Source: Candidatus Baldrarchaeum yapensis (lineage in GTDB: Archaea; Asgardarchaeota; Baldrarchaeia; Baldrarchaeales; Baldrarchaeaceae). Taken from it: a stretch of DNA of 20,873 nucleotides. The translations under genes and the position numbers were made by a program. The notes under the pieces are model-generated. The model saw only the letters and a list, made by a program, of their open reading frames with translations, had not been told where the DNA came from and ran no database searches. Each line of letters starts with the position of its first letter. Positions within the stretch are counted from its first letter, which is position 1. Shown here piece by piece: positions 238-10,389 of the stretch. The stretch is from contig JAEOSH010000043.1 in NCBI GenBank assembly GCA_016840465.1, positions 1 to 20,873 on the forward strand, given 5' to 3'.

Positions 238-675
238 TTAAAACTCTACGAGGGCGAAAAGAGATTCTGAGGGTCTAACAACCCCATTCCTCATTTTTAT
301 GAAACCAAGCCTTTCTAAGTATTTGAGATCCTCGAGCACGGTTTTCACTTCCACGCCACGCTCCTTAGCGACTTCCTCTATTTTTGCTTCTCCCTTTCCT
401 GCACATAATTTTATGACCGCAAATAGCGTTGCCTTCACTCTATCCGGTAGGAACCCCTCACCCTCGGTAAAAGCCAGATGCCACGTTTTTGAAAGAGGAT
501 TGTACATGAGTGAGAACCCCAGGAGAGATAACATGTATGAAACCCTCTCTAACGCCTTAATCGCACAAACTTCTCCAAAATCGTCCTCACGTAGGCCTAA
601 GAGCCTTATTATCTCCCGTAGGGATATTCCTTTGCCTCCCAAAAGCCTGCTCAACAATGCCGTGACCTCATTCAA
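238..675 (-). CDS. scpB: ScpB-like KITE subunit (tandem winged helix)
   Basis: 145 aa with two WH-like halves. LPDRVKATLFAVI…IEEVAKERGV…LKYLERLGFIK matches the ScpB WH-B pattern (LS..aLETLAiI…raEIeeiRGV…L..L.erGlI). It is the last gene after SMC and kleisin and overlaps the upstream gene by 8 nt. Confidence 0.75.
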   Translation of the reverse strand: MNEVTALLSRLLGGKGISLREIIRLLGLREDDFGEVCAIKALERVSYMLSLLGFSLMYNPLSKTWHLAFTEGEGFLPDRVKATLFAVIKLCAGKGEAKIEEVAKERGVEVKTVLEDLKYLERLGFIKMRNGVVRPSESLFALVEF

Positions 676-1234
676 TCATGATCACCTCGTTTTTGTCTTC
701 AGATAGCGATAGTCTCCCCGAAGATATCAATCTGAGGAGTGCAACGAATGCCATCAGCGTGGACCATCGATCTCCCATTTTAACCACATTTTCTACGCTC
801 GCCCTCCCTCCTTGCTCCGTTAAAAGCGAAAGTACCAGTCTAGACGCTCTTTTCAAGATATCCTCAAACCTTACGATACTTATCTCGACGTGTGGAGCCT
901 CAGAGCCTAACTCTATATGCTCGGTGAGCTCTTCTGCTTCTAAGCACCTCCTCTTCTCCGATAGCGATTTTAATCTCTCGAATGCTCTTCTGAGATCGTC
1001 GATTCCAATAAAGGGGAACATCAATGGAACTCCGGCTATTTTGATCTCTGGTTGTTCTCCCTCAAGGTTCATTAGTATGAGGTTTGCTATTTCGCGGATC
1101 TCCCTCTCGATAAGATCCAAAATTCTTGCAATTATCCTTAATGCTTCCCTTAGATCCATATTGTCGATCTCGGCAAGCACCTTTGAAATTAGCAAATTTA
1201 CGTCGCCACCGCTGCCCATCATAAGGGTCACCAT
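668..1234 (-). CDS. scpA: ScpA-like kleisin (short); likely start ATG 1222
   Basis: DVNLLISKVLAEIDNMDLREALRIIARIL resembles the ScpA N-terminal helical region, IGIDDLRRAF resembles the 'vTLdeLi.AL' motif, and C-terminal FVALLRLISSGRLSL resembles the kleisin cap WH (FLALLeL…G.v.l). It lies directly after SMC, with GGTGA 6 nt before ATG 1222. Confidence 0.75.
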   Translation of the reverse strand: MVTLMMGSGGDVNLLISKVLAEIDNMDLREALRIIARILDLIEREIREIANLILMNLEGEQPEIKIAGVPLMFPFIGIDDLRRAFERLKSLSEKRRCLEAEELTEHIELGSEAPHVEISIVRFEDILKRASRLVLSLLTEQGGRASVENVVKMGDRWSTLMAFVALLRLISSGRLSLSEDKNEVIMIE

Positions 1235-4200
1235 TCCAGCTCTATTATCCTGCTAACGCCGCGGTCTTTCTGCAACACCACTCCGTAAATCTTATCGGCG
1301 AACAATCCGATGTCGGCGTGCTTATCCGGCACAAATACCAGCACCTGCCTTCCCTTTGAATTCTTACTGAGAATTTTCGCCGCAACGGTGCTATGCCTGA
1401 TGTCTAAGAAGATGACCGGCTCGTCGTAGGCAAATATGCGGCTGTGCGATCTCCTCTGAAGTGCACATATGAACGCTATTGCTATGATTGTCTGTTGACC
1501 CTTACTGAAGGTCTTGATGGCACGTTCAACGCCATCGCCTGTTTTTGCCCTCATCACCAAGCCCAGTTCCTCGAAGCTACCATCCAATGTGGCGCTGCAC
1601 CGTATGTCGATGTTGTTCTCCTCAAGCACGCTATTAACTTCCCTGATAATTGAATCCACCTCCTTCCTCAACTCCTCCAAGTACTTATCTTTCAACTTCT
1701 CCATGAGTTGGCTGACGGCACTTATTTTCCTCTCTACCTCGTTTATTCGCCTAGAAATTTCCTTTCGACTCTCCTGTAGCTGCTTTACCCTGTCCAGCAC
1801 ACTCTCATCGACTTCTCCCAGTTCTTCCAGTTCCTGCAATACCACCTCCTTGCGCGCCCTTATTTCTGCGATAGAGCGCACCTTCGAAGGGCGTTCGACT
1901 CCCATAATTTTAACCGAACTGTAGAGATTACCGAGTTCCTCCTCGATACGCCTAATCTCTTCCTCCAACGTCTCCATCTTCCTACTCACGTCCTGATATC
2001 TCTCATCGAATCTGCCCAACTCCTCACGAAGTTTCTCCTTGCGCTCTTTCAGTTTCGATATCTCCCTATCCACGCCCTCGATACTCGATTTGATTTCTTT
2101 TTTCTTCCCCTCCAGCAGTTCGACATTCTTCAGGCTTTTTCTCAAGTCGGCATCTGCCCTTTCCAACTCTTCCTCCAATTCGACCTTCACTGATGCCTTC
2201 TCGTTAATTCTGGTATCAATGCCTACGAGCATTTTCTCCAACTCTGTTATCAGATTTTTGCCCCTCTCAACCATCCTGTCCACTTTTTTCAACTCTCTAT
2301 CGTTCCTCTTCAACCCTTTCTCTATAGCGTCCAGCATGCCAATGAGTTTATCGTAATCTGCCGGTTTCCGCCCCTCTATTTCCTTTAACCCTGCGAGCGC
2401 CTCGTCAACTCTCCTCTTATACTCTTCTAACTCTTTCTTCAACCGCGATACTCTCTCCTTAGCATTTTCTATCTCCTCACGCAGACGAAGCTTGCGCTCG
2501 TGGAGTTCTCTCCATTTCGGGATCAGGTTGAGCAACTCTCTTATTCTTTCCAACTCTCTCCCATATCGCTCTACGTCATCCGATAATTGCTTACGCTTCT
2601 CCTCCAAGGTCTTCCGCCTATCTTCCAACTCTTCGAGCATCGCTTGGAGCCTTTTAACGCTGAGGAGACCGCGAGGTTCCCGCCTTGCCACCATTTTAAT
2701 GACGTAATTACGCCCCTCCACAACTTCGCCGTCCAGCGTGACGAATCTATAGTTGTACTTTCGGGAGAGTCTTATTGCACTATCTAGGTCTCTCACAACC
2801 ACAACTCTGCCGCAGATATCCCTTATCACGGGTCTCAGTTCCTCGGGAAACGTTATCAGGTCTTCGAGCCATCCCACGACTCCCTCCTCCCTTAGCTCCT
2901 CCTTCTCCTCAACCCGCTCGACCTTGGGCATGTAGATCGATACTCCGCGTGCGCGGTACTTCCTTCTTCTGAGGTCGTTTAAGATGTCGTTTTGTATCTC
3001 TTTTAATATCTTGAGGTCCATCTCGTCAAATACCACGAACGATAAGAGATCCCCGCCAAATATTATTTCGACGACCTCCGCGTACTCGTCCGGGACCTCC
3101 ATGTGCTTCATCAGCGGCCCCATAGCGTTAATGCCCCTTCTCTCAACTTCCTTTTCCAGCCTTGTGACCTCCTCCGGTATGCGTTTATCTCTGCTCAGAA
3201 GCTTCGCCCTCAACTCCCTAATCTCCCCGTCAAGGTTCGCCAGTTCCTTGGTGATCCTCCCCAGTTCTCCGATCAGTTCGCCCCTCTTCCTTTCGAGATC
3301 CTCCATTCTCCTCCTCAATTCTTCCTCGTTGTAATGCTCAATCTCCTCTCCAATTTCCTGAATCTCCTTGTTAACCTTCGCAAGTTCCTCATGTAGATCC
3401 CTGAGCCTGTCCATTTCGGCATCAACTTCTTTTTTCTTCTCCTCGAACGCCCTTCTCTCCGAATTATACAGTTCTCTTGCCTTAGACCATTCTCCTTCCC
3501 ACTCACGATAGTCCTTGAGTTTGTTCTCGACCTCCCTCTTCCTCTCATGTAGTTTCTCGATCTTCTGCTCGATCCTTGCTCTTCTATGTTTCAGTTCTGT
3601 GACCCTTTTCTCAACATTTCTGATGCATCCCTCGAGGACCCTTTTCTCTCGATCAAGTCTCTCCATCTCCGCTCTCAGGCGTTCAATCTTACCTATTATC
3701 TTGTCGTACTCCTTACGCTTCTCCTCGATCTTCATATTTTCGGCAGCAATTTCACCTTCCACCTTTCTCAGCACTTCCTCGAGCGACTTCTTCTTTTTCT
3801 CCAATTCCTCGATCCGTTTTCTGGTTTCAGAGATCATTGCGTTGATCCTCTCGATCTCATGGGCTAGATCTCCGCATTTCCCCTTCAATTCTTCCATTTT
3901 TCTTCTGCGTTCTGCAAGTTCTCGCTCCCTTTCAGATATCTCCGCCCATAGTTCCTCCGCTTCCAGTTTTTTAAGTTCCTCCTCCAGCTTTCTCTTTCTC
4001 TCCAATTTTTTGATCTGCGGACGTAGGTTCATCTCCTCCGAGTTGAGGGCCCTTAATTCCTCCTCCAGCAGTTTCTTTCTCTCCGACAGTTCCCTAATTT
4101 TATCAAGTTTATCTAGGATTTCCCTCCGATGCCCCGCAAGTCCTGTGATTTCCTCCACTGCCTCCCTCAGAGCAATGGGGTCGAGATCCTTGATCGCATC

Positions 4201-4605
4201 TATCTTCCCTTGAGGGCAGAATACGAACGGGTTGCCGGGGTCGGTCTCCAGTTCCCTGACTATCCTTCTGACGCTCTCGGCAGTTGTGAGTTTGCCGTTG
4301 ACGAAGTACTGTGGGGGCCTTCCCCTTACGACCCTTCTCCTAATGGTAATTGATTCCTGTCCATTGCTGAGCACCACCTCGACCCATGCCTCATTACAGC
4401 CGTGCCTGATGAAGTCCGACCAGCGCGGATACCTCTCATCCTTTTGGTTCGATCCCAAGACGAACCTTAGCGCCTGGAAGAGCGCGGTCTTCCCGGATCC
4501 GTTTTCCCCAACGAAAACTAAGAGTCCATCTTCGAGGTTTATCTCCTCATGTGCGTACGAGAGAAAATTATGGAGCGTTAACTTTACGATCCGCACCCCC
4601 TCCAC
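1228..4605 (-). CDS. smc: SMC-family ATPase with hinge; atypical head (start GTG 4605 or 4596)
   Basis: 1125 aa. Walker A GENGSGKT (aa 33-40), Q-loop FCPQGKI, two long coiled coils around an SMC hinge (GPLMKHMEV…FVTLDGEVVE), signature-like FSKGQ, Walker B IFAYDE and D-loop FLD. Confidence 0.95.
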   Translation of the reverse strand: MEGVRIVKLTLHNFLSYAHEEINLEDGLLVFVGENGSGKTALFQALRFVLGSNQKDERYPRWSDFIRHGCNEAWVEVVLSNGQESITIRRRVVRGRPPQYFVNGKLTTAESVRRIVRELETDPGNPFVFCPQGKIDAIKDLDPIALREAVEEITGLAGHRREILDKLDKIRELSERKKLLEEELRALNSEEMNLRPQIKKLERKRKLEEELKKLEAEELWAEISERERELAERRRKMEELKGKCGDLAHEIERINAMISETRKRIEELEKKKKSLEEVLRKVEGEIAAENMKIEEKRKEYDKIIGKIERLRAEMERLDREKRVLEGCIRNVEKRVTELKHRRARIEQKIEKLHERKREVENKLKDYREWEGEWSKARELYNSERRAFEEKKKEVDAEMDRLRDLHEELAKVNKEIQEIGEEIEHYNEEELRRRMEDLERKRGELIGELGRITKELANLDGEIRELRAKLLSRDKRIPEEVTRLEKEVERRGINAMGPLMKHMEVPDEYAEVVEIIFGGDLLSFVVFDEMDLKILKEIQNDILNDLRRRKYRARGVSIYMPKVERVEEKEELREEGVVGWLEDLITFPEELRPVIRDICGRVVVVRDLDSAIRLSRKYNYRFVTLDGEVVEGRNYVIKMVARREPRGLLSVKRLQAMLEELEDRRKTLEEKRKQLSDDVERYGRELERIRELLNLIPKWRELHERKLRLREEIENAKERVSRLKKELEEYKRRVDEALAGLKEIEGRKPADYDKLIGMLDAIEKGLKRNDRELKKVDRMVERGKNLITELEKMLVGIDTRINEKASVKVELEEELERADADLRKSLKNVELLEGKKKEIKSSIEGVDREISKLKERKEKLREELGRFDERYQDVSRKMETLEEEIRRIEEELGNLYSSVKIMGVERPSKVRSIAEIRARKEVVLQELEELGEVDESVLDRVKQLQESRKEISRRINEVERKISAVSQLMEKLKDKYLEELRKEVDSIIREVNSVLEENNIDIRCSATLDGSFEELGLVMRAKTGDGVERAIKTFSKGQQTIIAIAFICALQRRSHSRIFAYDEPVIFLDIRHSTVAAKILSKNSKGRQVLVFVPDKHADIGLFADKIYGVVLQKDRGVSRIIELEW

Positions 4606-5515
4606 CCCCTACCATGCTCCTTATCCTCTCAACAGCCTTCTTCGCTCTCATCAACCTGATGATCCTCCTCTCACGATCATCTAGCAGTATAAACGAGCAC
4701 TTAGCGAGAAGGATTTCCAGTTTCCTATCGAGGGGTTGCCCGATGTTGATCTTACGTATTAGCTTCTCGAACTCCTGCCCGTACTCGCTGATTGCCATCA
4801 TGTACATTTGATCCAGCATGTCGTCGGGAACCACGCTCTCCACAACCTTAGGCGCTGGCGGAAAGATTATCCTCTCGAGACAAAAGATAAAGTCCTCCGT
4901 CTTAACAACGTCCCTGTTGTTGCCGAACGCATAAGAAACCGCCATCTTGACGAGATTTATCAGGTCCGTCGCATAGAGTCCCTCCGTCATCTCTATTATC
5001 TTTCTCAGGTCGATATCGTACTTTACACCGTCGAGTAATACCCTCAGCGCCTCCCCCCTCTCACTTGGCCCCGGTTCATGCACTCTTAATACGAACTCGT
5101 TTATTGTTAGCGGGTTTTCCAATGGCGGGCTCAGCACCACTATTAAAAACTTCCCGTCGAAGGCCCTATTCTTAAGGAGATCCATCACGTGATCACAACT
5201 TGCCCACGTTAAAAGCACGACTTCCCTGAACTTAGAAGGTTCCATATGCTCGTTGGCCGATATTTCTGTTATATCTATGTTCATTTCGTTCAATACTGAT
5301 TTTATCGCTAAATCTATCATCGATCTGGGATCCGCATAAAGGATGACCCTAGATACCGGTTCCACTCTCAGGTTTTCCGTGAAAAACGTGCGGTTCCTCC
5401 ATGCAGTTATCAGAGCCTTCAATGCCTCTACTGTGTCCCTGCAACAGATGTTTGCGACGGCCTTGACCTTCTCCTCCCACGTGGCAACCCTTTTCTCTTT
5501 CTCACTCTCCGCCAT
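4568..5515 (-). CDS. Inactive classic-clade (PAN/Cdc48/FtsH-like) AAA+ domain protein with C-terminal helical extension
   Basis: LRVEPVSRVILYADPRSMIDLAIKSVLNEMN aligns to '[28 protein letters not shown]' with the P-loop destroyed. No hhhhDE Walker B (VVLLTW instead). EPGPSERGEALRVLL…DIDLRKIIEMTEGLYATDLINLVKMA…DVVKTEDFIFCLERI is a recognisable AAA lid. Confidence 0.7.
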   Translation of the reverse strand: MAESEKEKRVATWEEKVKAVANICCRDTVEALKALITAWRNRTFFTENLRVEPVSRVILYADPRSMIDLAIKSVLNEMNIDITEISANEHMEPSKFREVVLLTWASCDHVMDLLKNRAFDGKFLIVVLSPPLENPLTINEFVLRVHEPGPSERGEALRVLLDGVKYDIDLRKIIEMTEGLYATDLINLVKMAVSYAFGNNRDVVKTEDFIFCLERIIFPPAPKVVESVVPDDMLDQMYMMAISEYGQEFEKLIRKINIGQPLDRKLEILLAKCSFILLDDRERRIIRLMRAKKAVERIRSMVGGGGGADRKVNAP

Positions 5516-7283
5516 AGTATCCTCTCACCTCCTCTATGACCATCTTGGGGAGATCGTTTGCATCCTGCACGGGATAGATTTTTCCTCCCATTTGGAAGAA
5601 CGTTTTGAACTTTTTGCTCTGCAGATCCTCCTCCCTGCCGCCTATCAAGAACAGTACTATCTTGTGCCCCATTGACGCGATCTCCATTAGGCCCCTTAAT
5701 GCCTGCTTCCAGTTGTAGATCTCCGCATCGCTTATTATCAGAACCAACACCTGATCCCTCGCCTTTTGCACCAGCTCAATCAACTCCTCTATCGGAAGTT
5801 CCGTTCCTCCGCCCTGGTACGTCAGTAAGCAGTCCTCCACTTTCTTCCTGTCTCTGGTCCACTCACAAGTTATGGGCTCGTCCGAGAAGTTCAGCACCGC
5901 CATCCTGCAGTTTTTCCTCATTGCAAAATCCAAGGCAGCGAATGCGGACACTAGTGCCGCATCATACGGTCCCGATGGTCCGGCCGGGTTCCATAATTCC
6001 CAGAACATGCTACCTGAGCTATCTATCACTATAAGGAGGTCGGGAGGGGCACTTTTCTCACCATGCCTTTCGCTTTTCCTTTTTACCCATTTTCTGGTGG
6101 TAATGTTCGGAATGAGAACCGGGAATGTTTGAAGAGATTGCACGATGTCCAACTCCTCTATTGGGTCGCCGATACGCCACACCGTGGTGTATGCGGGCAA
6201 TGCGCTTCCCTCTCTTTTAACCCGCATTTTTATTTCGATCTTTGAGGCCGCTCTTGCGCGATACCAGAACCTTAAGAGGTCATGCCCCCTCAACATCGGA
6301 GACAGACCCAGTGAGGCAGAGGCGAACTTTCCAAAGTCTTGCCCTCGCTCTACAAACCGCCTCGCTATTTTTTCAAGGTCCTCCTCTGATAGTTCGCCCT
6401 TCCCCTCAGCGGCCTCCTTATCACGTATCTCCATGGGGTTTCCACGCATCAGGATAATAACATCTTTAGGAACTTCTGCAGGTGATCTTTCTTCTTCGGC
6501 ATCGGGCTTAGTGGCCATGGGGGACCCTGTTGACGACCCTCCGCAACCTGTGAGCATGGGTGCCGGCACTCCTAAACAGATGCCCTCACGGACTTCCTCC
6601 ATCAGCACGTCTCTTAGTATCTGTGCGACCCTGCGAGTCCTCTCGGGCCACGAGTTCTCGTCATCTATTCCATCCCTGACGGCATTTGCAAGTTCTCGCG
6701 CTATTCTGTCCTCCCTTTTTCCAATGTCTAGGCGAATCGGAAATCTAACACCCCACAGGTATTCATAGGTTCGGACGAGTATTTTGAATAGGGCACTCGG
6801 AGATCCGGTTACTCTAACCGCCTCTCTTATTATCACCTCGAGTGACCACAGCGTGTCATCCCGGAACATCTTAAACAGTTTTGTTTCGACCACGAGATCG
6901 GCAAACACGTTTACTGCGAAAACCGCGCGCATTGGGTCGAGTACAGATGCCGCCTCGGCGACCATGAACGAGGAATTAATTCTATCATATGGACAGTAGA
7001 TGTAATGTCCGATTTCATGCCTTGCCATACATCTGAAAAACCTGAGGAGCTCCGTTTCTCCAAGCTGGGGATGTCGAGCAACGTTCATATGAACCCGCCA
7101 ATCCTCCTCGCTTATGTAGAAGCCCGATGTTTTCATCTCGTCATATTCTATTTCCGGCTCGGGGATCGGTGGGTTGAGGAAGTCCGCGAGCGCGAGGTTA
7201 TACCCCTCCCTTGCGATATGCATAACTCTCTCCGGCGGAATCCCCCTCCCTCTGCGGAAGATTTTACCTAGCGCTTTCTCCAT
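5502..7283 (-). CDS. Zincin-like metallopeptidase (HExxH) fused to a VWA domain (MoxR partner, DUF2201-like architecture)
   Basis: HEIGH at aa 89-93 (7005-7019) followed by NVFADLVV. The C-terminal VWA has a complete MIDAS: LLIVIDSSGSM, GGGT, IISD. GGTGA RBS, 4 nt after the MoxR stop. Confidence 0.85.
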   Translation of the reverse strand: MEKALGKIFRRGRGIPPERVMHIAREGYNLALADFLNPPIPEPEIEYDEMKTSGFYISEEDWRVHMNVARHPQLGETELLRFFRCMARHEIGHYIYCPYDRINSSFMVAEAASVLDPMRAVFAVNVFADLVVETKLFKMFRDDTLWSLEVIIREAVRVTGSPSALFKILVRTYEYLWGVRFPIRLDIGKREDRIARELANAVRDGIDDENSWPERTRRVAQILRDVLMEEVREGICLGVPAPMLTGCGGSSTGSPMATKPDAEEERSPAEVPKDVIILMRGNPMEIRDKEAAEGKGELSEEDLEKIARRFVERGQDFGKFASASLGLSPMLRGHDLLRFWYRARAASKIEIKMRVKREGSALPAYTTVWRIGDPIEELDIVQSLQTFPVLIPNITTRKWVKRKSERHGEKSAPPDLLIVIDSSGSMFWELWNPAGPSGPYDAALVSAFAALDFAMRKNCRMAVLNFSDEPITCEWTRDRKKVEDCLLTYQGGGTELPIEELIELVQKARDQVLVLIISDAEIYNWKQALRGLMEIASMGHKIVLFLIGGREEDLQSKKFKTFFQMGGKIYPVQDANDLPKMVIEEVRGYYGGE

Positions 7284-7287
7284 GTGA

Positions 7288-8997
7288 TCACCCCGTCAGT
7301 ATCTTCAGGAGTTTTTCGGCATCAGGGCCCGATATCTCGAGATACACGGGGTCATCATCCTCGGTTCCCGTGACGCTGACGGAGATCGTCACCCATGGAG
7401 TCCTGACAAAGCAGTATCCGATTCTTTCGAATAATGGTTTCAGCGATTCGTAGATTCTCCTATCCGGCACTTTGGCGATTATCTTCGGTCCTAAGTTCCT
7501 CCACTCCTTGAATGTTATCCGCACCATCTCGCATGTTAGTTTGTGTATTTGCCGATCCACTCTATCCAGGAGCCTCTCCCTGTAGGGTATATCCACGTCA
7601 CTGCTGAGTTTCTCCCTTATTTTTGCGAGGTCGCTCACCTTACCTGCTGTTATCGCCTTCTCTATCTCCGTAACGAACTTCCTGTACTTAGGAGAGTTTA
7701 GTTGCTTCACCAGCGGTAAAATGTCCACCTTGACAACGATGTCGCTACGCGCCCACAGTTCGAGTTTCTGAATGTCTTCTTTCGTCCCCGTCCCGCGCTC
7801 AAACTTTTCTAGGATGTCATATGCTTCCATCCGCGCGATGAACCGGTCCTTCACCAACTTCATAATATGTCTCGTAAACTTGAGCGGGTCCCCATAAAAT
7901 GGATGCTCGCGGAGGTTCTTATCGGAATACTGCACACGATGCCATACTACAAATGGTGCAATCGCCTCCACAACCTCTATCGTCACCCTATCCAAGTTTA
8001 GAAGCCATGCCAATGCTTTCGCATATCTGCTGATGTCCTTCGCTGCTCTTACGCTCAATGGAGTCAGTATCTTGTTACAGGGACATTTATCCGTGTTGAA
8101 GTGGCAACCCTGACACAGCCCGGTGTCTGGTCTGAGAATTCGGGCGTTCTCCTTACTCACCCGTATGCATGCCTTGTATTCGGAAATTATGCTACTTATG
8201 AATCTGGCGGCCCTAGGGTCGAGTTCCATTCTCTCGACCATGCCCCATATCTGCATCAGTTCCTTCTCGGTCAGAATTGCGGGGATTTGGTAATATTCAT
8301 CGAAACCGTAAAGTTTCTCGTCTTGGGTTCCGAGGATCACCTGCATCTCGACAGAGGAGGGCATTGTCACGGGAACCGCGATGCCGAACCTGTCAAGGAA
8401 GGGCAACCCCATTTCAAAGGTTCCTACGTCCTGAGGGTTCAGCGTCGCGTACAGCACGAAGTTTTCGCAACGGTATACTTTGTCAAAGTACTTTACCTGT
8501 CCTTCCGCAAGCAAAGATAGGAGGATGTCTTGGGCGTATGGACTAAGTCTATTCACCTCGTCGACAATCTTCCAGAAGTCCGTAACGAATCTCCTCCACA
8601 CGACGTCCTCTACTCCCTCTTTTAGTAACTTTCCCGGCTTAAGAGTGGCGACCATCTTCTCCTCCGTTATGTACGGGTGCGCCCTTACGACCGCCTCCTC
8701 TATCTCCCTTAACGACTTTCCGGTAAGCATCCTCCCGAGAATCTTAACGAGGGTGGTTTTACCACCCCCATGTCCCCCATATAGCAGCATCGTCCCACGG
8801 GGGACCAGCGCGTTAATGACCGCGAGTGTGAGGATTAATGGCAATCGCTTGACGGAGTATCGGCCGCTTCGGCCGGACGGAACCTTCACTTCTAGGCGTT
8901 CGCCGTGAACAAATAGTCTATGCACTTCAACCGTGTTTATTACTTCCCAGACCTTTCGCCTGAGGCTGTCCTCGGAGGCGCGGGGCAACCCGCACAC
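7288..8997 (-). CDS. MoxR-like (helix-2-insert clade) AAA+ ATPase with N- and C-terminal extensions
   Basis: Walker A GGHGGGKTT, Walker B KIVDEVNR, sensor I ATLNP, Arg finger FLDRF, sensor II LSVRAAK, and lid end APFVVWHRV. Adjacent to a VWA gene, as is typical for MoxR. Confidence 0.9.
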   Translation of the reverse strand: MCGLPRASEDSLRRKVWEVINTVEVHRLFVHGERLEVKVPSGRSGRYSVKRLPLILTLAVINALVPRGTMLLYGGHGGGKTTLVKILGRMLTGKSLREIEEAVVRAHPYITEEKMVATLKPGKLLKEGVEDVVWRRFVTDFWKIVDEVNRLSPYAQDILLSLLAEGQVKYFDKVYRCENFVLYATLNPQDVGTFEMGLPFLDRFGIAVPVTMPSSVEMQVILGTQDEKLYGFDEYYQIPAILTEKELMQIWGMVERMELDPRAARFISSIISEYKACIRVSKENARILRPDTGLCQGCHFNTDKCPCNKILTPLSVRAAKDISRYAKALAWLLNLDRVTIEVVEAIAPFVVWHRVQYSDKNLREHPFYGDPLKFTRHIMKLVKDRFIARMEAYDILEKFERGTGTKEDIQKLELWARSDIVVKVDILPLVKQLNSPKYRKFVTEIEKAITAGKVSDLAKIREKLSSDVDIPYRERLLDRVDRQIHKLTCEMVRITFKEWRNLGPKIIAKVPDRRIYESLKPLFERIGYCFVRTPWVTISVSVTGTEDDDPVYLEISGPDAEKLLKILTG

Positions 8998-9232: not shown

Positions 9233-9811
9233 TCACCGACCCTCCGGTATCATACCATTCGCCCTTAATTCCTCATACACTCTTCTCAAAAGTTCTCGAA
9301 TCTTCCGGCGCTTCTTCATGCCTCCCATCATCTGTGCAACCTTTCTGATGCTCCCTATTACCGAGATCATCTCGAGTATACGTCTTTCCTGTTTTGTCAG
9401 TTCCAGATGCTCCAGTGCAAGCCTCGCGATGTAGTCCACCGGAATCTTGCCATAGTATAGGCTCTCGGGGTCTATCCCCTCCCCGTACTTCTCGATCACG
9501 TCGAACTCTATTATCGTGACGTTAGACTCCGGCGATACGTTGCCGTAGTGGTACTTCAGGCTCTCTATGAGCTCGTCCCTGCTCTTGAACCCGTCCTTGT
9601 GCGCGTCCTCATCGGTGAGATCCTTCACCTTCTTGTGTTCAACTCTCCTTACCCGGGCCTTCGCTATTATTTTGCCGCCACAGTGGATGAAGACCTCATC
9701 TCCCTCGCTCAGCCGGCGTATGGTTCCCAGCCTTATGGTCGTGCACTTTTTCCCCTTCAGGACCTTCTCACGGTACTGCCGCTTTAGTTCTATGTACTTC
9801 ATCCCCAGCAC
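9233..9811 (-). CDS. ASCH (PUA-like) domain protein with C-terminal HTH-like region; likely start ATG 9802
   Basis: KVLKGKKCTTIRLG…GDEVFI…LTDEDAHKDGF is the ASCH GxKxxTxR pattern. The tail LTKQERRILEMISVIGSIRKVAQMMG is HTH-like. Confidence 0.85.
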   Translation of the reverse strand: MLGMKYIELKRQYREKVLKGKKCTTIRLGTIRRLSEGDEVFIHCGGKIIAKARVRRVEHKKVKDLTDEDAHKDGFKSRDELIESLKYHYGNVSPESNVTIIEFDVIEKYGEGIDPESLYYGKIPVDYIARLALEHLELTKQERRILEMISVIGSIRKVAQMMGGMKKRRKIRELLRRVYEELRANGMIPEGR

Positions 9812-9981: not shown

Positions 9982-10389
9982 TTATCGAGTTGTTTGACCG
10001 ATTTCTAACTCTATGAGCTTTAATCCGTATCTTTTAAGCCGTTCAAAATGCTTCTTATTTCTTGCCCAGAGAAACGCGCCCCTCTGGATGGCCGTAGCGG
10101 CAATTATGGCGTCACGTGGATCCAGGGCCTCCCCCCGGTTCATCAGATCGGCCTCTATTTTTGCCGCGCAGTCGGCGGCCTCTATTGATATCGGCAAAAC
10201 CCCGAAGTATTTCTTGAGCAGATTCTTAAGGTAGCCTTGATCGGTCTTATACGCTCCCGTCATAAATTCGAAGTAAACCACAGCGCAGATCTTCAGATCG
10301 TACTTTTCCATGAGGCTAATAATTTTCTTAGGGTCGCCCTTCTCCAGCAGATCTATCAGCACGTCCGTATCTAGATGTACCTCGTTCAT
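9982..10389 (-). CDS. vapC: PIN-domain (VapC-family) toxin
   Basis: VHLDTDVLID, YFEFMTG, DPRDAIIAATA and RNKKHFER. Acidic PIN residues are present, though the usual 'T.D/N' position reads ARN. Confidence 0.9.
   Translation of the reverse strand: MNEVHLDTDVLIDLLEKGDPKKIISLMEKYDLKICAVVYFEFMTGAYKTDQGYLKNLLKKYFGVLPISIEAADCAAKIEADLMNRGEALDPRDAIIAATAIQRGAFLWARNKKHFERLKRYGLKLIELEIGQTTR

Follow-up and report, generated by a model that had tools for sequence, protein, structure and literature searches.

The window analysed here is a stretch of 20,873 nucleotides (nt) from Candidatus Baldrarchaeum yapensis, an Asgard archaeon (GenBank assembly GCA_016840465.1, contig JAEOSH010000043.1, positions 1 to 20,873), in which six co-directional genes, all on the minus strand, form a cluster. 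One of them, P0001 (positions 4568-5515, minus strand), is an intact open reading frame of 315 amino acids (aa) whose product is, judging by its sequence and structural model, a catalytically dead protein derived from the classic AAA clade and equipped with a new C-terminal domain, i.e., a separate dead subfamily and not a PAN, FtsH or Cdc48. It is very likely that P0001 is dead but under selection, and probable that it acts as a dedicated non-enzymatic partner of a second structural maintenance of chromosomes (SMC)-kleisin-KITE complex in Asgard archaea.

The AAA fold is clearly retained. In an AlphaFold2 model derived from an alignment of 20 family members (mean predicted local distance difference test score, pLDDT, 87.2), a core of five strands is followed by a lid of four helices and by five additional helices at the C-terminus; the parallel strands lie at residues 56-60, 82-86, 99-103, 123-128 and 141-144, with helices at 150-217 after them. 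The top Foldseek matches of this model in the PDB are exclusively classic AAA modules (FtsH, Rpt subunits, PAN, p97 and YME1; E about 1e-10, probability 1.0), and a search of the ESM Atlas also gives AAA families, FtsH being structurally closest. The lid (residues 147-217; 4865-5077, minus strand), delimited from a match to PF17862 and from alignments to the PAN and FtsH lids, displays the classic-clade signature TEGxxxxDL, and Pfam AAA_lid_3 (PF17862) is found at residues 167-209 (E = 2e-5, 24.5 bits against a cut-off of 27.2 bits); PF00004 is not detected in P0001, and the gathering thresholds of the Pfam AAA models are not reached. NCBIfam and PDB searches match P0001 in the lid region of PAN, FtsH and Cdc48, and the best NCBIfam score (among PAN, FtsH, Cdc48 and CdvC models) is 27 bits against a 500-bit cut-off, from the lid alone. 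As the subfamily scores all fall far below their cut-offs, P0001 is best regarded as a separate subfamily. The MoxR-clade models AAA_5, AAA_3 and lid_2 give no Pfam match in P0001, in contrast to the neighbouring P0004, which has AAA_5 and AAA_lid_2. An earlier note on this DNA, made from the sequence alone, had recognised an AAA-like pattern and lid and had assigned them to the classic rather than the MoxR clade; the modelled fold, the Foldseek matches and the type 3 lid agree with it on both counts.

The catalytic motifs, in contrast, are gone, and they read as that note had described them. In place of the Walker A motif GxxGxGK[ST], P0001 has ADPRSMID, the P-loop lysine being lost: the remnant YADPRSMID (residues 60-68; 5312-5338, minus strand), located by HMMER alignment to PAN and by the family motif table, lacks Gly-Lys-Thr, and HMMER pairs ILYADPRSMIDLAIK of P0001 with the PAN P-loop segment LLYGPPGCGKTLMAK. 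Similarly, the β3 strand ends in VVLLTW (residues 99-104; 5204-5221, minus strand; placed from model strand 99-103 and the sequence), without the Asp-Glu of the Walker B motif hhhhDE. The second region of homology (SRH), for which the consensus of a sensor-1 Asn and two Arg fingers (ATNRPD..LD.AL.RPGRFD) was tested, has no RPGRFD-type sequence in P0001, so that the arginine fingers are missing, and LSPPLENPLTINEF occupies the region. Finally, pore loop 1 (aromatic-hydrophobic-Gly) is absent between the Walker A helix and the Walker B strand in every family member displayed. Having lost all four of these elements, P0001 is predicted neither to hydrolyse ATP nor to thread substrates.

Relatives of P0001 indicate how this state arose. 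A HMMER scan of 1.84 billion representative proteins gave 27 matches at E ≤0.001, and a word-index search for relatives of near-equal length returned only P0001 itself; the names on related loci and proteins, where given, are all Asgard (Thorarchaeota, Jordarchaeales, Freyarchaeum, Jordarchaeum, Helarchaeales and Harpocratesius). In a motif table of 74 family sequences, the G-K-T columns hold Asp followed by Phe, Ile or Leu in 58, with a fixed GxxG[TS]DF at Walker A of the Thorarchaeota copies; GK[ST] is kept in three, two of them from the genome family f18 (G039, Candidatus Freyarchaeum deiterrae, and G142) and one a Helarchaeales protein. The Walker B Glu column holds Lys or Arg in 42 of the 74 and Glu in a single sequence (as KE), and neither D-E nor E-E occurs in any of them. 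The RPGR arginines are missing from the Thorarchaeota SRH, A[AST]T[TS]RP..VD..LL..FDR, and f18 alone keeps one SRH Arg, in TRFD. Basal relatives have an intact P-loop GxGKT, pass the Pfam AAA threshold and carry D-N or E-N at Walker B, GKT-type relatives as a whole having D-N, E-N or D-P at this site; from known AAA enzymes, D-N or E-N should permit ATP binding but not hydrolysis. Two basal types can be distinguished, a 459-aa Freyarchaeum/Jordarchaeum AAA preceding an 835-aa SMC, and a 540-560-aa AAA preceding an SMC-kleisin-KITE set in families f25 and f26. Thresholds are passed by the relatives at locus L027 (76.1 bits for PF00004, 31.6 bits for PF17862) and at locus L023 (33.6 bits for PF00004), and the less eroded relatives match FtsH, PAN, Cdc48 and CdvC models, the best GKT-type reaching 110 bits against a cut-off of 600.

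A quick maximum-likelihood tree, flagged for long branches and compositional bias, separates the SMC-linked AAAs from the ordinary AAA ATPases of the window genome (Shimodaira-Hasegawa-like approximate likelihood ratio test, SH-aLRT, 95), and brings all 27 dead forms together in a clade (SH-aLRT 95) that has the Helarchaeales GKS protein at its base. One loss of the P-loop Lys would account for all 27. The sequences indicate that the decay of the SMC-linked AAA is ancient and ordered, with DE replaced first by DN, then GKT by the fixed DF, followed by erosion: whole families lack the Lys, GKT is confined to basal branches and DE is found nowhere, which speaks against recent decay. Motif replacement as ordered and conserved as this is better explained by a structural function that has been kept than by drift, and makes the P0001 family a tidy case of stepwise pseudo-enzyme evolution. 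P0001 itself belongs to the most eroded branch, where its neighbours are copies of the Jordarchaeales type (at most 36% identical to it) and four metagenome proteins. Full-length-profile matches in genomes G072, G106 and G096 (1e-37 to 1e-42) cover the AAA part alone and were treated as ordinary AAA ATPases.

Both the selection regime and the distribution of the family are consistent with a maintained protein. The ratio of non-synonymous to synonymous substitution rates (dN/dS; Nei-Gojobori method, NG86) is 0.07-0.23 in 10 orthologue pairs of relatives, and 0.05-0.24 for the AAA part and the C-terminal part taken separately in nine of them, the synonymous rate of the C-terminal part being saturated in the tenth. 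In a survey of 136 Asgard genomes, each at least 93% complete, a profile of the C-terminal domain finds one copy each in 104 (one of these copies split over two contigs) and a KITE profile is matched in 107; both are present in 101 genomes, the AAA only in three, KITE only in six and neither in 26. Two of the six KITE-only genomes belong to f25/f26 and carry a GKT-type AAA invisible to the C-terminal profile, and at least two others have KITE at a contig end. Neither profile finds its gene in families f3, f5, f6, f13, f14, f15 and f21, where, given the completeness of the genomes, wholesale absence is likely. Together with the constant synteny described below, these data uphold the earlier proposal of a maintained pseudo-enzyme rather than a pseudogene. 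One dead AAA homologue (L061:8954-9792, plus strand, genome G138) is split at its eroded centre into two overlapping open reading frames of 116 and 172 aa, a frameshift or sequencing error; the SMC gene that follows runs unbroken to the end of the contig.

The C-terminal domain (residues 218-315; 4571-4864, minus strand), delimited by family alignments and the model, is family-specific, and its five helices correspond to the extra helical C-terminus of about 100 aa that had been noticed before. Modelled alone, it forms a five-helix bundle (pLDDT 85.9) with a basic last helix of 23 residues, conserved as R..RAKK..[ED]R; the consensus of the domain is YPDDFLDQLYLMAV..LN.G.PLS....FL.RYPFLL.G..E.RL.RL.RAKK..DRL.R..GR. 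It is the most conserved part of the family and the main region common to the relatives found. The window's domain is 42-46% identical to that of Jordarchaeales-type copies, and in the Loki-type closed genome the C-terminal domain alone is still recognisable, directly before the SMC gene. Pfam and the PDB contain no sequence relative, and no convincing structural relative was obtained (best VIA Z 5.8, which is noise level for helical bundles; Foldseek E >1). We infer that this domain is the working surface of the protein, binding protein or DNA. Long FtsH alignments raised the possibility of an FtsH M41 protease remnant, which was rejected: their root-mean-square deviation is 13-16 Å, Pfam gives no M41 signal, and FtsH is absent among the VIA matches listed for the isolated domain (all with Z ≥4.0). 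An ESCRT-III MIT-interacting motif (MIM)-like reading of the last helix was also dropped, its spacing not fitting, and the C-terminal regions of the f25/f26 AAA proteins are unproven as homologues of the five-helix domain (hhalign probability 0.3%); their AAA part matches at 98%, as any AAA might.

The link to the second SMC gene is constant. In all 46 fetched genome loci holding both, the dead AAA and SMC genes lie on the same strand, the distance from the AAA stop to the earliest SMC start being -32 to +19 nt (44 measurable loci), and the same arrangement is seen in 5/5 metagenome contigs. The downstream order in the fetched loci is AAA homologue, divergent SMC, kleisin-sized gene and winged-helix KITE-like gene. 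In the window, the P0001 gene shares 14 nt with the VWA gene upstream and 38 nt with the SMC gene, and a ribosome-binding site read from the sequence (GGAGGTGA, 5525-5532, minus strand) lies 9 nt upstream of its ATG; the intact frame, strong ribosome-binding site and two overlaps on which the earlier note relied are thus all present, and the arrangement indicates that the SMC gene P0002 is translationally coupled to P0001. The gene is found in essentially all syntenic clusters examined. Its position between the VWA gene and SMC, as first described, holds for the window lineage and Jordarchaeales-type relatives and not elsewhere, the invariant position being directly upstream of the second SMC. 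At L058:9383-9409 (genome G241), dead AAA and SMC share one reading frame, split only by a TGA and 21 nt; a natural AAA-SMC fusion, suggested by a '1589-aa open frame' in this genome, was therefore discarded, the TGA stop lying between the two frame-sharing genes.

The divergent, second-type SMC P0002 (1125 aa; 1228-4605, minus strand) has SMC_N and hinge matches and scores 276 bits with TIGR02169 against a 729-bit cut-off. Relatives hold a canonical SMC elsewhere (TIGR02169 about 880-910 bits), the cluster SMC being the second, divergent one; in the window genome (96% complete) no canonical SMC exceeds the TIGR02169 cut-off, and P0002 is the only full-length SMC match. With the cluster SMC as query, phmmer favours neither Smc5 nor Smc6 over Smc3 or Smc2 in the PDB. 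It is followed by a probable kleisin (188 aa; 668-1234, minus strand), whose position is kept in all loci and whose profile gives weak matches to ScpA C-terminal winged-helix fragments (E 0.1-0.5), and by a probable winged-helix KITE subunit (145 aa; 238-675, minus strand), assigned from the family alignment and from winged helix-turn-helix matches in several members and DUF4194 matches in two. A second, partial KITE-like match of 79 aa with one in-frame TAA lies elsewhere in the window genome (G000:C89:88701-88922, minus strand) and may be a gene fragment. Second ('SMC5/6-related') SMC-kleisin-kite operons have been described in TACK and Asgard archaea (Yoshinaga & Inagaki 2021, PMC8665677; van Hooff et al., bioRxiv 10.1101/2024.01.07.573240), and the cluster resembles them in its divergent SMC with its own kleisin and kite, besides a canonical SMC in relatives. 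AAA, MoxR and VWA are absent from the main text of both papers, which treat SMC, kleisin and kite only, and no description of the dead AAA protein was found in the literature searched.

Upstream of P0001, the cluster encodes an HExxH-motif/VWA protein, P0003 (593 aa; 5502-7283, minus strand; VWA_2 at residues 416-519, HEIGH in the translation), and the MoxR-type AAA+ ATPase P0004 (569 aa; 7288-8997, minus strand), whose GGHGGGKTT is intact. Orthologues of P0003 sit next to MoxR in the fetched loci. The position of this MoxR-VWA pair relative to the SMC genes comes in three versions, upstream and co-linear in the window and the Jordarchaeales-type family, divergent in Thorarchaeota and downstream in contig L150. 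With SMC as the constant neighbour and MoxR-VWA variable in position, the protein is tied first to SMC; a role as adaptor to the MoxR/VWA module, as proposed before, is plausible in addition.

The occurrence of MoxR provides the best support for joint work with that module. When the MoxR orthologue is counted at E ≤1e-60 in the 136 genomes surveyed, it is found exactly in the families whose copy lacks the Lys, in none of those keeping GKT and in none of those without the SMC-AAA complex. The P-loop is dead in the window's own family f1 (C-terminal profile and MoxR both present), in f7 (Thorarchaeota; C-terminal profile 22/25, MoxR 22/25), f8 (Jordarchaeales type; both 2/2), f9 (72/75 and 65/75), f28 (Loki type; both 1/1) and f33 (both 1/1). 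Conversely, GKT is kept in f18 (C-terminal profile 5/5, MoxR 0/5) and in f25 and f26, in each of which the profile is matched in 0/2 genomes (the AAA being seen otherwise in G146 and G148, respectively) and MoxR in 0/2. The pattern is suggestive of a transfer of the nucleotide-dependent step to MoxR.

The same pattern lends itself to a different, rather unlikely explanation, in which P0001 is mainly a handle or adaptor of the MoxR-VWA machine, tethering a remodeller or protease to its target, and not a stable SMC subunit; it is equally doubtful that the dead AAA protein is the point at which the metal-ion-dependent adhesion site (MIDAS) of the VWA domain or the MoxR ring takes hold, as this explanation would have it. 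The restriction of MoxR to dead P-loops, the place of P0001 between the VWA and SMC genes with overlaps to both, and the persistence of MoxR-VWA beside the cluster in three gene orders would all fit. However, SMC and not VWA is the invariant neighbour, MoxR lies elsewhere in f9 and f28 while the dead AAA abuts SMC, and basal GKT-type relatives precede SMC in genomes that have no MoxR orthologue.

It is improbable that the cluster uses its SMC to defend the cell against plasmids or viruses, as Wadjet or Lamassu systems do, with the dead AAA as sensor or regulator and the HExxH-VWA protein as effector. SMC-like complexes with extra partners are common as defence systems, the window genome shows only the divergent SMC and no canonical one, and this SMC gives moderate PADLOC matches to the LmuB and JetC models. 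These matches are, however, weaker than its TIGR02169 match, and PADLOC-DB 2.0 gives only generic matches for SMC and KITE and none for P0001, P0003, P0004 or the kleisin. Moreover, no nuclease is seen among the six cluster genes, and the system is single-copy, near-universal in its families (22/25 genomes in f7, 72/75 in f9, 5/5 in f18) and stable in synteny, as opposed to the patchy islands of defence systems.

A transient assembly chaperone for the SMC coiled coil or heads, absent from the mature complex, is a very improbable identity for P0001: its origin in a chaperone-type AAA family and the tight translational coupling just upstream of SMC, which would bring it to nascent SMC, could be taken that way, but AAA-type unfolding should be impossible with neither ATP binding nor a pore loop predicted, while the present data do not distinguish a chaperone from a stable subunit. 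That P0001 is a decaying gene, or an unconventional yet active ATPase, is hardly credible, for although the window copy is the most eroded, with PF00004 undetected and the lid below the Pfam cut-off, the dN/dS of relatives is low, the frame is intact with a strong ribosome-binding site, the AlphaFold2 model is confident, the C-terminal domain remains 42-46% identical to Jordarchaeales-type copies, and all four catalytic elements are missing together.

Several observations weigh against P0001 as a dedicated partner of the second SMC complex, or against parts of the history proposed for it. Its association with SMC, kleisin or KITE is inferred from genomic evidence, the kleisin assignment of the 188-aa gene is weak, and the role of the C-terminal domain is guesswork, no fold relative being recognisable. 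The window copy has no close orthologue (best 32-36% identity), so that selection on it is deduced from its relatives and its unbroken frame. A grouping of the dead forms by themselves has only 31% support in the tree, though nothing there contradicts it. The complementarity of dead AAA and MoxR may reflect one evolutionary event, kin not being independent, and the MoxR gene is at another locus in f9 and f28. Finally, five other Asgard loci (L124, L130, L140, L141 and L143, labelled 'Promethearchaeota'; e.g., L140:7950-15645) have MoxR-VWA beside canonical SMC-ScpB instead, convergent to the canonical SMC (832 bits) and ScpB and with no dead AAA nearby, which makes MoxR-VWA a neighbour of both SMC types in different lineages.

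If P0001 is a dedicated partner of the second SMC complex, a descendant of a classic-clade AAA ATPase would have become, once catalytically dead, an SMC-complex partner, its frozen AAA body serving as a rigid, 'stator'-like docking platform and its C-terminal domain binding the SMC head or arm, the kleisin or DNA so as to load or regulate the ring, while ATP-driven work on the complex would be supplied in trans by the MoxR ATPase and the HExxH/VWA adaptor. A more speculative and, in our view, unlikely extension is that the second SMC complex is a machine of several parts whose AAA subunit, originally an ATP-binding 'switch', became a stator without nucleotide when MoxR and HExxH/VWA were recruited for the ATP-driven work, resulting in a dedicated protein-remodelling loader, unloader or opener of the SMC ring in the archaea closest to eukaryotes; with similar reserve, the GKT-bearing 'switch' form of that scenario might survive in the Freyarchaeum/Jordarchaeum type and two other families.

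P0001 shares the alpha-beta-alpha core and AAA_lid_3 with classic-clade AAA proteins (PAN/Rpt, FtsH, Cdc48/p97 and Vps4/CdvC; PF00004 and PF17862), and differs from them in lacking the Walker A Lys, the Walker B DE, the arginine fingers and the aromatic pore loop and in having the extra C-terminal domain. Non-catalytic AAA/AAA+ subunits include the clamp-loader delta-prime 'stator', the chloroplast FtsHi/Ycf2 motor subunits and the NSF-D2 or Pex D1 rings. P0001 resembles these in the use of an ATPase fold as a rigid structural or regulatory element after the loss of catalysis, and FtsHi chains (8xku) are among its Foldseek matches. In contrast with P0001, whose neighbour is the SMC ABC-type ATPase, they act inside rings or spirals of related active AAA proteins; no active paralogue of P0001's own clade is encoded in the cluster. 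Non-SMC regulators of SMC rings are known as well, such as Nse5/Nse6 of Smc5/6, ParB for bacterial Smc and MatP/MukB. Nse5/Nse6, ParB and MatP can be likened to P0001 by function alone, as a dedicated extra partner proposed to load or tune the ATPase, the folds of Nse5/Nse6 and ParB (alpha-solenoid and ParB CTPase) being unrelated; to our knowledge, no SMC partner has an AAA fold. MoxR-VWA pairs (RavA-ViaA, CbbQ-CbbO and NorQ-NorD, with the logic of Rea1/midasin) are remodellers of one particular client whose gene lies close by. P0004 and P0003 belong to this type, the dead AAA P0001 falling outside the MoxR clade, and we know of no MoxR-VWA pair with an SMC client.

Little is known of the loading, regulation and removal of SMC rings in archaea, and eukaryotic cohesin, condensin and Smc5/6 are believed to derive from the Asgard lineage. 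A subunit of AAA origin, conserved and maintained by selection beside the second SMC, would, if true, extend the range of SMC partners by a new class. The GKT-type and dead-type forms offer a clean natural comparison for how SMC rings are handled, and the coincidence of catalytic death with the presence of MoxR-VWA defines a concrete set of proteins for co-expression.

A few further genes were observed near these clusters. Directly upstream of a GKT-type AAA/SMC cluster, a 176-aa protein (L153:5500-6027, plus strand, genome G148) has a weak match, below cut-off, to UFC1, the Ufm1-conjugating enzyme (E = 1e-4). In the Loki-type closed genome, a 1154-aa HEAT-repeat protein (L067:15-3476, plus strand) has a Pfam match to Cnd1, condensin subunit 1 (E = 2e-11), a model that HEAT repeats often cross-match; its gene lies about 4 kb upstream of the dead-AAA/SMC cluster, with a transposase and a glucanotransferase gene between. 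In the window, genes for an ASCH-domain protein (9233-9811, minus strand) and a PIN-domain protein (9982-10389, minus strand) come just before the six-gene cluster, in the same orientation.

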